A stretch of 22,898 nt of DNA from a virus, in UHGV virus genome UHGV-1634937. One strand, written 5' to 3'. Each line of letters starts with the position of its first letter. Position 1 is the stretch's first letter. Both the position numbers and the translations under genes were made by a program. The notes under the pieces were generated by a model, which saw nothing but the letters and a program-made list of their open reading frames with translations, had not been told where the DNA came from and did no database searches. Below, piece by piece: positions 18,734-19,778 of the stretch.

Positions 18734-19561
18734 TTATTTCACCGGAACAAACGGAACAGCGGTATTACTGGTCATATACTGCGGTAATGTACCGTTCCAT
18801 TTGTTGATCGCTTCCAACTCCATAACACCGGGGTTCTGGCGCAGAGCTTCACCACGTAAACGAATGGCATCAGCTTCGGCCTGGGCTTTTGTGCGAATAG
18901 CATCAGCCTGTCCGGCAGCTTCCGCGCGCAGCATGTTGGCCTCTGCTTCACGTTGTTTGACCTCTTGCTCGCGTTGCAGGGTTTTTTGGTTTGCCGTGAC
19001 TTTGGCGTTAATACTGTCAATAACTGTTGGCGGGTATTCTGGCTTACCTACATAAGAGAGGCTCATCACCTGAATACCGATTGGCGTCATTTCTTCCTGA
19101 ATGTCTTTAAGGGCTGCATCAAGCAATTCAGATTTGCCACCGTCGATAAATTTGTCGGTGGTCATTTTGCTGGCTAACCGGTTCAGAGCATCTGCAACCT
19201 TCTGGCGTAGATCGGTATCAGTAATATCATCTACACCTTTGCGATAGGTCTGAAATACCGTTGTGACTTTTGCTGGATCAACCTTGTAGGCTACGCCGAT
19301 GTGGTAACCAATGGTTGTTCCGTCGCTCATCTGGAAGCTGAACGGCTCATCGTATGTCTTCATTTGCTTAAAGGTCGGGAAGATATAAACTTCAGTATTC
19401 AAGCCTGTCCAGTAGCGACCAACGCCAACTACTTCACCGATACCTTTATCATCCCCCAGCTTATTTACTTTGATCCCTACGTTACCTGGCTCTACCCGAT
19501 CGCATCCGGTCAGACATAAAGAACCCAAAATAATCGCTGCACTAATCAACGTTTTTTTCAT
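18734..19561 (-). CDS. SPFH/band-7-domain lipoprotein (275 aa)
   Basis: Signal peptide plus lipobox MKKTLISAAIILGSLCLTGC; prohibitin-like body; A/E/Q-rich coiled-coil C-terminus; AGGAAA RBS. Confidence 0.6.
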   Translation of the reverse strand: MKKTLISAAIILGSLCLTGCDRVEPGNVGIKVNKLGDDKGIGEVVGVGRYWTGLNTEVYIFPTFKQMKTYDEPFSFQMSDGTTIGYHIGVAYKVDPAKVTTVFQTYRKGVDDITDTDLRQKVADALNRLASKMTTDKFIDGGKSELLDAALKDIQEEMTPIGIQVMSLSYVGKPEYPPTVIDSINAKVTANQKTLQREQEVKQREAEANMLRAEAAGQADAIRTKAQAEADAIRLRGEALRQNPGVMELEAINKWNGTLPQYMTSNTAVPFVPVK

Positions 19562-19778
19562 TAATTAATTTCCTGGTTTTTTCACGAAAAAAGACTACTG
19601 CGAAAGCCGGGTAAATGAGCGCGAGAAGGACTCCCAACAATACAAGTATTGTGCTGTTAGATGAGATCATATTTGGCAAAAGCCAAACATACAGAACCAG
19701 TGACACAATCAAACAGAGGACGGCATAAATATATAACCGCACCCATAGCGTTCGACATTTGTTCGGATTGTTCTGCAT
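19542..19778 (-). CDS. small integral membrane protein (78 aa)
   Basis: Two hydrophobic helices (LYIYAVLCLIVSLVLYVWLL, ILVLLGVLLALIYPAFAVVFF); RBS GGAGTGAGAGG; 3' end overlaps the lipoprotein start by 20 nt. Confidence 0.55.
   Translation of the reverse strand: MQNNPNKCRTLWVRLYIYAVLCLIVSLVLYVWLLPNMISSNSTILVLLGVLLALIYPAFAVVFFREKTRKLINEKNVD

Follow-up and report, generated by a model that had tools for sequence, protein, structure and literature searches.

A phage-borne SPFH lipoprotein and its small two-helix partner form a conserved module in a variable slot of P1-like phage-plasmids

SPFH proteins are universal membrane organizers, and their functions in bacteria are poorly defined. Prohibitin, HflK/C and erlin are SPFH complexes that face the non-cytoplasmic side of the membrane; HflK/C, which face the periplasm at the inner membrane, enclose FtsH (structures 7vhp, 7wi3, 9cz2). 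For SPFH proteins encoded by phages, we found no demonstrated function in the searchable literature. The present analysis concerns two overlapping genes on the minus strand of the virus genome UHGV-1634937 (22,898 nt; 'the window' hereafter denotes this entire stretch of DNA), which encode an SPFH lipoprotein of 275 amino acids (aa; 18734..19561) and a protein of 78 aa with two transmembrane (TM) helices (19542..19778), here called the partner. Comparisons by blastn, together with P1 annotation, identify the source of these genes as a P1-like phage-plasmid, which over positions 18400-20100 shares 99.9% identity with 'Punavirus P1' MH422554 and 98.5% with RCS47. A sequence-only reading of the window had proposed an SPFH/band-7 lipoprotein overlapped by a small two-helix membrane protein and nested among tRNA genes, a description that is upheld throughout, and had gone on to suggestions about kinship and function that we revise below.

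A conserved pair of overlapping genes

The SPFH gene of P1-type elements belongs to a conserved module of two genes, the other of which usually goes unannotated. Both open reading frames (ORFs) are present in the window at the stated positions and overlap by 20 nt, and each is preceded by a Shine-Dalgarno sequence (GGAGTGAGAGG-ATG and AGGAAATTAATTA-ATG); overlaps of 4 to 20 nt recur in the P1-type, P88, phiP27/Stx, N4-like and Salmonella prophage versions. In phiP27, the Stx lambdoid phages and P88, a two-TM ORF of 62-67 aa lies directly upstream of the SPFH gene, with a 4-nt ATGA overlap. A profile hidden Markov model (HMM) built on an alignment of 20 partners, when run against the 600 nt upstream of the SPFH genes at 291 loci from IMG/VR and other sources, matched at 259 of these (E<1e-3), and the partner was detected beside SPFH genes down to approximately 36% SPFH identity. 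Most of the 32 loci that lack an HMM match hold a variant on inspection, the variants including a P-T-M-L-N turn, a copy two genes upstream (Pseudomonas phage TL) and, at one locus, a copy downstream. Because a homologous two-TM ORF recurs at this frequency, and because in-frame fusions exist, the small ORF is not a product of chance.

These fusions, of 320-390 aa, were found in roughly 20 of the 150 best distant representatives (the full-length ones at about 32-62% identity), and run from a two-TM hairpin through a charged linker to a signal peptide with a lipobox, and thence into the SPFH domain. An AlphaFold2 (AF2) model of one natural fusion, with a predicted local distance difference test (pLDDT) score of 87.5, contains confident helices at residues 5-38 and 43-68, then the signal-peptide helix and the SPFH domain. 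Natural gene fusion is classical evidence of a functional link, and the natural fusions also place the C-terminus of the partner in the cytoplasm (N-in/C-in). Separately, in one P1-type variant, on a 94-kb P1-like contig, an indel within the 20-nt overlap joins the two ORFs into one for a 347-aa fusion protein, like the distant bacterial fusions.

Database records reflect this module poorly. The SPFH gene is currently named 'SPFH domain-containing protein', 'lipoprotein' or, wrongly, 'serine protease', and in the listed RefSeq E. coli records that cover both ORFs it is the only one of the two annotated. The partner gene is likewise unannotated in phiP27 (3304-3492), in an Stx phage (4292-4480) and in the listed RefSeq P1-type plasmids; in P88 it is annotated as a 'membrane protein'.

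The lipoprotein, its partner and their fold

The lipoprotein matches Pfam Band_7 (PF01145) with an E-value of 9.7e-31 and a score of 107.6 bits, against a cutoff of 23.6, such that residues 22-208 align with profile positions 2-176 of 176; it also matches phrog_200, 'lipoprotein' (E 2e-113). At its N-terminus, MKKTLISAAIILGSLCLTG|CDR, a signal peptide carries the lipobox L-T-G-C, and the lipoprotein signal MKKTLISAAIILGSLC-LTG-C20 fits the pattern [LVI][ASTVI][GAS]C, with acylation predicted. The lipobox cysteine is invariant in one family alignment, and present in at least 90% of sequences in another. The window and every enterobacterial phage version have Asp21 at +2 and Arg22 at +3 (C20-D21-R22). 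Asp at +2 is the signal for inner-membrane retention in Lol sorting in E. coli and Enterobacteriaceae, and the lipoprotein is predicted to be retained in the inner membrane, facing the periplasm.

In the AF2 model of the lipoprotein (pLDDT 82), an SPFH1/2 domain leads into a single continuous helix (178-242, about 65 residues) and then a short C-terminal segment. The first beta-strand of the SPFH domain begins at Cys20, so there is no linker between this domain and the lipid anchor. Family alignments reveal a conserved C-terminal motif, K-W-[ND]-G-x-L-P, with C20, W255 and G257 invariant, and this conservation is compatible with a ring or cage oligomer on the membrane. Foldseek returned prohibitin (8rrh), HflK/C (7vhq, 7wi3, 9cz2) and erlin (9vvj) as the top PDB matches, then stomatin (E 7e-14 to 1e-11), with a probability of 1.00 to prohibitin, HflK/C, erlin, stomatin and flotillin alike. 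The top matches are full-length subunits of cage-forming SPFH complexes, and the QmcA-YbbJ (NfeD) structure 8z5g ranked 34 among the fold matches. Among proteins of solved structure, the only sequence relatives are HflK (E 2e-4) and a fragment of prohibitin-2, and the best NCBIfam matches scored below threshold (TIGR01932 for HflC, 24.7 bits against a cutoff of 134.4; TIGR01933 for HflK, 23.3 against 159.4). We conclude that the lipoprotein is a genuine SPFH member, and neither an HflK/HflC orthologue nor one half of an NfeD-type pair.

As HflK/HflC are nearest by sequence and among the top fold matches, and as they too face the periplasm at the inner membrane while enclosing FtsH, the pair might mimic HflK/C, either caging FtsH itself or perturbing the host cage, and so alter the turnover of CII, CIII, Xis or host membrane proteins. 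Phages do target FtsH, through lambda CIII. However, the similarity to HflK/C is weak, as the HflC score above and an identity of 15-21% attest, prohibitin, erlin and stomatin fit the fold equally well, and by Pfam the partner resembles neither FtsH nor a known FtsH adaptor. Gene context, to which we return below, bears further on this explanation.

Some records of related genes carry other labels. In many Stx2 phage, phiP27 and RCS47 records the lipoprotein is called a 'serine protease' or 'putative serine protease', a candidate identity that we rejected, as no protease family was matched in Pfam or NCBIfam and the sole protease-labeled match, to phrog_11227, is weak (E 8e-4); the label is probably an inherited and propagated misannotation, and the present analysis corrects it in the Stx-phage records. 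A 'transposase' label occurs on some relatives, in Ruegeria and Roseobacter phages and in Alcaligenes.

The partner has hydrophobic segments at residues ~15-34 and ~44-64 by hydropathy, and a net charge of +3 at its N-terminus, +2 at its C-terminus and 0 in the intervening loop of 8-10 residues, a distribution from which an N-in/C-in topology is predicted. It matches phrog_1130, 'membrane protein' (E 6e-16). Across the family it ranges from 62 to 89 aa, and the 78-aa version consists almost entirely of the two TM helices. The turn between them reads L-L-P-N-M-I-S-S-N-S, and in the alignment of 20 partners Ser39 is invariant and Pro35, at the end of TM1, near-invariant, giving the family signature P-x-[LM]-[ILV]-S-[SA]-x-[DST]. 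Against a large protein database the partner profile returned almost only close relatives, none bearing names or Pfam assignments; profile sensitivity is poor for short TM proteins, and we have for this reason taken the distribution of the partner from DNA loci.

The sequence-only reading had likened the pair to YqiK-type modules, and had recommended a search for Band_7 and NfeD domains. The former domain is present, as described. NfeD (PF01957) was not found in the partner at E<=1, its best Pfam matches being weak, confined to the TM segments and no better than E 0.005; a partner that lacks NfeD or any other Pfam domain, and has no space for the OB fold of NfeD, alongside an SPFH domain predicted to be periplasmic, does not sustain the comparison. 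An NfeD/YqiK-type module is hence rejected.

Locus, distribution and expression

The pair lies in a swappable cassette (18716..19803, minus strand) of 1,088 bp, which comprises a ribosome-binding site, the two genes and a short 3' tail. It stands exactly where canonical P1 (AF234173) has the 716-bp tciA-tciB-tciC cassette, between flanks that are 97-99.9% identical to those of canonical P1 by blastn, with MH422554 and RCS47 also compared. The SPFH and tciABC cassettes alike start 25 nt upstream of the first start codon and end at most 10 nt from trnI. The slot corresponds to variable 'region 7', and nearly half of the P1 subgroup-1 elements lack tciABC (PMC9603915). In PLSDB, 591 plasmids match the flanks, and the SPFH cassette is present in 188 of them, about a third; most of the remainder have TerB plus DUF3927, and a few an almost empty slot. 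As canonical P1 lacks the pair and holds tciABC instead, and as only 188 of the 591 plasmids carry it, the pair is accessory cargo, in line with the sequence-only reading, and the alternative of a core or morphogenetic P1 gene is rejected. In P1-like phages, then, the module alternates with the equally enigmatic tciABC, and P1 derivatives with the SPFH cassette, with tciABC or with an empty slot offer a tractable system in which to study the role of a periplasm-facing SPFH cage and the reason for its presence in phages. A second, more divergent P1-like lineage (NZ_OY754396.1, NZ_CP050999.1) has other genes beside the slot, ban not being among them; there, some members have the SPFH cassette and others only a hypothetical ORF of 43 aa.

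The lipoprotein has 708 relatives at E<=1e-5 in a 90%-clustered database, and 222 representative clusters at E<=1e-30 in a 50%-clustered library; by tblastn it is encoded in 392 of 50,697 phage records. The versions in phiP27, the Stx-converting lambdoid phages and the P2-like phage P88 show 86% nucleotide and 90-93% protein identity. The gene is present in 460 of 5,426 complete E. coli genomes (about 8%), at 310 chromosomal and 201 plasmid places. Carriers that are strictly virulent include N4-like Schitoviridae (KpCHEMY26, phiEaP8, Pokken), the LUZ24-like Bruynoghevirus TL, Vequintavirinae-type phages of ~145 kb (4MG, Mydo) and Felix-O1-like Ounavirinae (Pistou, SB18), and phiCbK-like phages, crAss-like phages and Lak megaphages are listed in the same group. 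Temperate phages of the lambdoid, P2-like and Enc34-like kinds also carry relatives of the module in their early lytic operons. Non-phage chromosomal copies were seen in two look-ups, which returned a Luteibacter locus with an 89-aa partner, and a fused version beside the RNase R and rpsP genes.

All of the approximately 10 phage contexts that were read place the module amid early or DNA-metabolism genes. In KpCHEMY26 it separates the early RNA polymerase subunits from dUTPase and replication genes, in TL it falls within the early region, and in 4MG it is flanked by ligase and exonuclease; in Pistou its neighbors are DNA polymerase and a CCA-adding enzyme/ligase, and a Salmonella prophage has it between the genes for a single-stranded DNA-binding protein and for DNA polymerase A. 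In P88 it belongs to the P2-type early operon and has a 4-nt overlap with the upstream gene, and in phiP27 and the Stx phages it sits in the PL-side early-left region, between the repressor region and xis/int. This last position would suit an effect on FtsH and its substrates. By contrast, the module is also frequent in virulent phages, for which no lysogeny decision arises, and together with the weak HflK/C similarity this leaves FtsH control, in our judgment, distinctly improbable.

The same contexts bear on whether the small protein could be a holin-like or otherwise toxic product that the SPFH cage corrals or times, the two then forming a lysis-timing or toxin-control pair. Its gross architecture is indeed that of a class II holin (60-90 aa, two TM segments, N-in/C-in, charged C-terminus). 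Yet lysis and structural genes were never beside the module in these contexts, no annotated endolysin, holin or spanin gene being adjacent, and membership of a lysis cassette is rejected accordingly; the P1 lysis genes lydA/lydB lie elsewhere. Moreover, copies are known from non-phage chromosomes, some partners are permanently fused to the lipoprotein, and the conserved element of the partner is a polar turn rather than a holin-like TM face. We consider a holin-like role extremely improbable.

Within the window, the order of transcription runs from Pban/Oban through a DicF-like region, which contains a terminator-like hairpin, then through tRNA-Asn, tRNA-Thr and a series of structured repeats to the cassette, and thence to trnI, ban and dbn. 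The palindrome at 21513..21550, an inverted repeat, matches the bivalent C1 repressor operator Oban (Op72) that overlaps the ban promoters, its position transferred from the P1 annotation via a 97% identical block; judging by this placement, it is presumed to control the whole unit, including the cassette. On the minus strand, tRNA-Asn (20785..20860) and tRNA-Thr (20707..20782), both called by ARAGORN and Rfam, lie upstream in a shared transcription unit, and a tRNA with anticodon CAT (18631..18706; ARAGORN, Rfam and P1 annotation) lies directly downstream of the cassette, followed by the operon gene ban (16980..18350), which encodes a DnaB-like replicative helicase (ORF plus P1 and RCS47 annotations). 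The pair is thus nested among tRNAs, as had been proposed. A consensus scan of 18300-21800 found no sigma-70-like promoter, which is weak evidence because Pban itself escaped detection.

This arrangement weighs on a role in the prophage state, in which the lysogen would express the pair for defense by abortive infection, or for an altered surface or virulence, for example through a lipoprotein released in vesicles. Such a role would fit accessory cargo in a variable slot, and the frequency of the gene in complete E. coli genomes, where it resides on prophages and P1-like plasmids. TLR1/2 is the receptor for triacylated lipoproteins. In Pasteurella multocida, PM0222, an 'HflK/C-like' SPFH protein of a lambda-like prophage (25-35 kDa) and a possible relative, was reported as a vesicle-associated virulence factor that signals via TLR1/2 (PMC9872710). 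Against this, the cassette lies in a repressor-controlled early operon, downstream of the C1-controlled ban promoter and with no promoter of its own detected, the P88 version is translationally coupled to the upstream early gene, and relatives are early genes and widespread in strictly virulent phages. In wild-type P1 lysogens, ban is silent and requires bac mutations for expression. Searches of PADLOC-DB 2.0 gave no match to the SPFH protein, and one insignificant match to the partner (PDC-M18B, E 0.023), and assignment to a known defense system is rejected. The operon position, the early and virulent relatives and the PADLOC result together weaken the case for defense by a resident prophage, which the sequence-only reading had entertained as superinfection exclusion or abortive infection, and a prophage-state role of any of these kinds appears very unlikely.

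Of these two suggestions, superinfection exclusion fares better when transferred to lytic growth. T5 Llp, phi80/N15 Cor and TP-J34 Ltp are phage envelope lipoproteins that exclude other phages, some of them products of early genes. An SPFH ring and its partner, made early in infection or induction like T4 Imm/Sp or T5 Llp and not in the lysogen, might change or obstruct the inner membrane on its periplasmic face and so block the DNA of later phages. The predicted site at that face, the early-operon position in many phages, and a slot shared with a TerB-type cassette, of a family historically tied to phage inhibition (PMC9603915), all point in this direction. On the other hand, protein identity of 80-93% is maintained across P1-like, lambdoid and P2-like phages with wholly different receptors and entry routes, and non-phage chromosomal homologues lie beside housekeeping genes, both unlike receptor- or phage-specific exclusion factors; no PADLOC model was matched. 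We regard exclusion during lytic growth as unlikely.

The RNA surroundings of the cassette may affect its expression. Four or five repeated, structured RNA-like elements occupy 19800..20706 (minus strand), between the tRNAs and the cassette, each of 80-135 nt with a closing stem of ~20 bp around a multiloop, and with z-scores of -3.9 to -6.9. One repeat has the canonical T-arm sequence GGGUUCGAAUCCC, and others have GGGUUCAUAUCCC; ARAGORN made no tRNA call in the repeats, and no Rfam family matched at E<=1. They resemble tRNA-like or Y-RNA-like RNAs. Their copy number varies among P1 relatives, the window having an extra unit (20441-20613). The enterobacterial small RNA (sRNA) family STnc100 scored below threshold at 19812-19932 (minus strand; 37.8 bits against 47, E 7e-6). 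The last repeat has a GC-rich closing stem and a U6 run at ~19804-19806, on the cassette boundary, and this boundary element may be a terminator or processing site that modulates expression of the cassette and ban.

Two ORFs annotated in P1 on the opposite strand, 'upl' (19833-20162, plus) and 'plp (putative lipoprotein)' (20163-20582, plus), lie exactly over the repeats, and are possibly spurious because their repeated peptide motifs mirror the DNA repeats. Identity of the present pair with 'plp'/'upl' was considered and rejected, these being distinct plus-strand ORFs (~19833-20582), still beside the cassette. Further upstream, a terminator-like hairpin with a T-run (21333-21352, minus) falls inside the P1 'dicF-like' region (~21316-21417), and the ban operon may begin with a cell-division-inhibiting sRNA of DicF type that has its own terminator. 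The tRNA with anticodon CAT is called Met by ARAGORN, but trnI (tRNA-Ile2, ileX-like) in the P1 annotation of an identical gene; a tRNA-Ile2 of the ileX kind with CAT reads Ile once modified with lysidine. Proximity of the module to tRNA functions recurs in unrelated phages, from the tRNA genes of the window to the CCA-adding enzyme/poly(A) polymerase in Pistou and roseophage DSS3_MAL1, and an RtcB-like ligase in CcrSwift. In P. aeruginosa the SPFH gene PaFlo8 is reported to lie within the rtc locus (PMC13086221). This proximity could be coincidence, all of these being early auxiliary regions.

A proposed function and its relation to known systems

The account that we favor, which is plausible although we would stop short of calling it probable, is that the pair builds, in the course of lytic growth, an inner-membrane scaffold of a split HflK/C type, which fences off a patch of membrane and thereby conditions the envelope of the infected cell. 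Relief of C1 repression would let transcripts from the ban promoter extend through the DicF-like region, tRNA-Asn/Thr and the repeats into the cassette, and from there to trnI and ban. Since their ORFs overlap, the 78-aa partner and the lipoprotein would be translated together. The partner would then insert into the inner membrane as an N-in/C-in hairpin, while the SPFH precursor would be exported, lipidated at Cys20 and kept in the inner membrane through the Asp at +2, so that its SPFH domain would lie flat against the periplasmic face.

Oligomerization into a ring or cage would follow, by way of the long helix and the conserved C-terminal motif, as in HflK/C, prohibitin and erlin. The TM hairpins of the partner would supply a membrane 'fence', replacing the N-terminal TM helices that HflK/C and prohibitins carry in cis, and the conserved P-x-L-I-S turn, the only part of the partner predicted to be exposed to the periplasm, would touch the SPFH1 domain. 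The patch enclosed in this way might preserve the integrity or organization of the inner membrane during phage replication, and could possibly hinder the DNA of phages that arrive later.

Several considerations count against this account. We infer the timing of expression from gene position; the structural models are of monomers, and oligomerization, partner contact, inner-membrane retention, formation of a cage and physiological benefit are proposals. With regard to retention, Arg at +3 may weaken the inner-membrane signal, the rule for Asp at +2 derives from E. coli, and many members of the SPFH lipoprotein family have Ser or Thr at +2. With regard to timing, the strongly structured U-run element just upstream could attenuate read-through into the cassette. 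The Pasteurella prophage protein that may be a relative was found in ordinary cultures and outer-membrane vesicles (PMC9872710), which, if the kinship holds, argues for at least one instance of expression apart from lytic growth. 'Membrane conditioning' is, moreover, a broad notion, and the findings do not separate it from exclusion or FtsH control. We found no experiment or functional study on any member of the subfamily in the searchable literature, and a 2026 paper on an N4-like phage states that the reason for the phage SPFH lipoprotein 'remains unclear' (PMC13239085).

A bolder version of the split-scaffold proposal, and one that we think somewhat unlikely in its entirety, would make the pair a new class of two-component SPFH cage that has been spread by phages, is used by virulent and temperate phages from many families for early control over a process of the host inner membrane, and is functionally swappable with tciABC in P1-like phages. 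If so, the split cage might enclose FtsH or another machine, or seal the membrane against incoming DNA or against the pore-forming effectors of abortive infection. Whichever function proves correct, we found no description in the searchable literature of the two-TM partner family and its signature, the natural fusions, the consistent placement among early genes in virulent and temperate phages alike, or the allelism with tciABC.

Comparison with described systems delineates what is particular to this module. The tciA-tciB-tciC cassette of P1 has the identical slot, orientation and operon, and is likewise accessory cargo of an envelope or stress type; its products, a TerB-domain protein, a DUF3927 protein and a small peptide, are however unrelated to the pair. 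T5 Llp, Cor and the Streptococcus thermophilus Ltp share with the SPFH protein their nature as phage envelope lipoproteins, but they are small, lack an SPFH domain and target one particular receptor or tape-measure protein, whereas the present protein is a large, predicted oligomerizing scaffold that is conserved across phages with different receptors. PM0222 of P. multocida, possibly a related SPFH protein, differs in having been studied solely as a virulence factor.

Closer in layout are the SPFH-NfeD operons (QmcA-YbbJ, YqiK-YqiJ, FloT-NfeD2), in which a small membrane-protein gene also lies directly upstream of, and overlaps, the SPFH gene; there as here, the SPFH oligomer presumably depends on the partner to assemble or to be anchored. 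The partner described here nevertheless has no NfeD domain, its 62-89 aa leaving no room for an oligonucleotide/oligosaccharide-binding (OB) fold, and its SPFH domain is predicted to be exported, lipidated and periplasmic, whereas QmcA and YqiK face the cytoplasm. Closest in architecture and predicted location are HflK and HflC, with which the lipoprotein shares the SPFH1/2 domain, the long coiled-coil helix, the C-terminal closure motif and a predicted position on the periplasmic face of the inner membrane. Unlike them, the phage lipoprotein dispenses with an N-terminal TM helix in favor of a lipid anchor, and in place of a K/C pair we find a single, phage-borne SPFH gene, accompanied by a dedicated two-TM partner.

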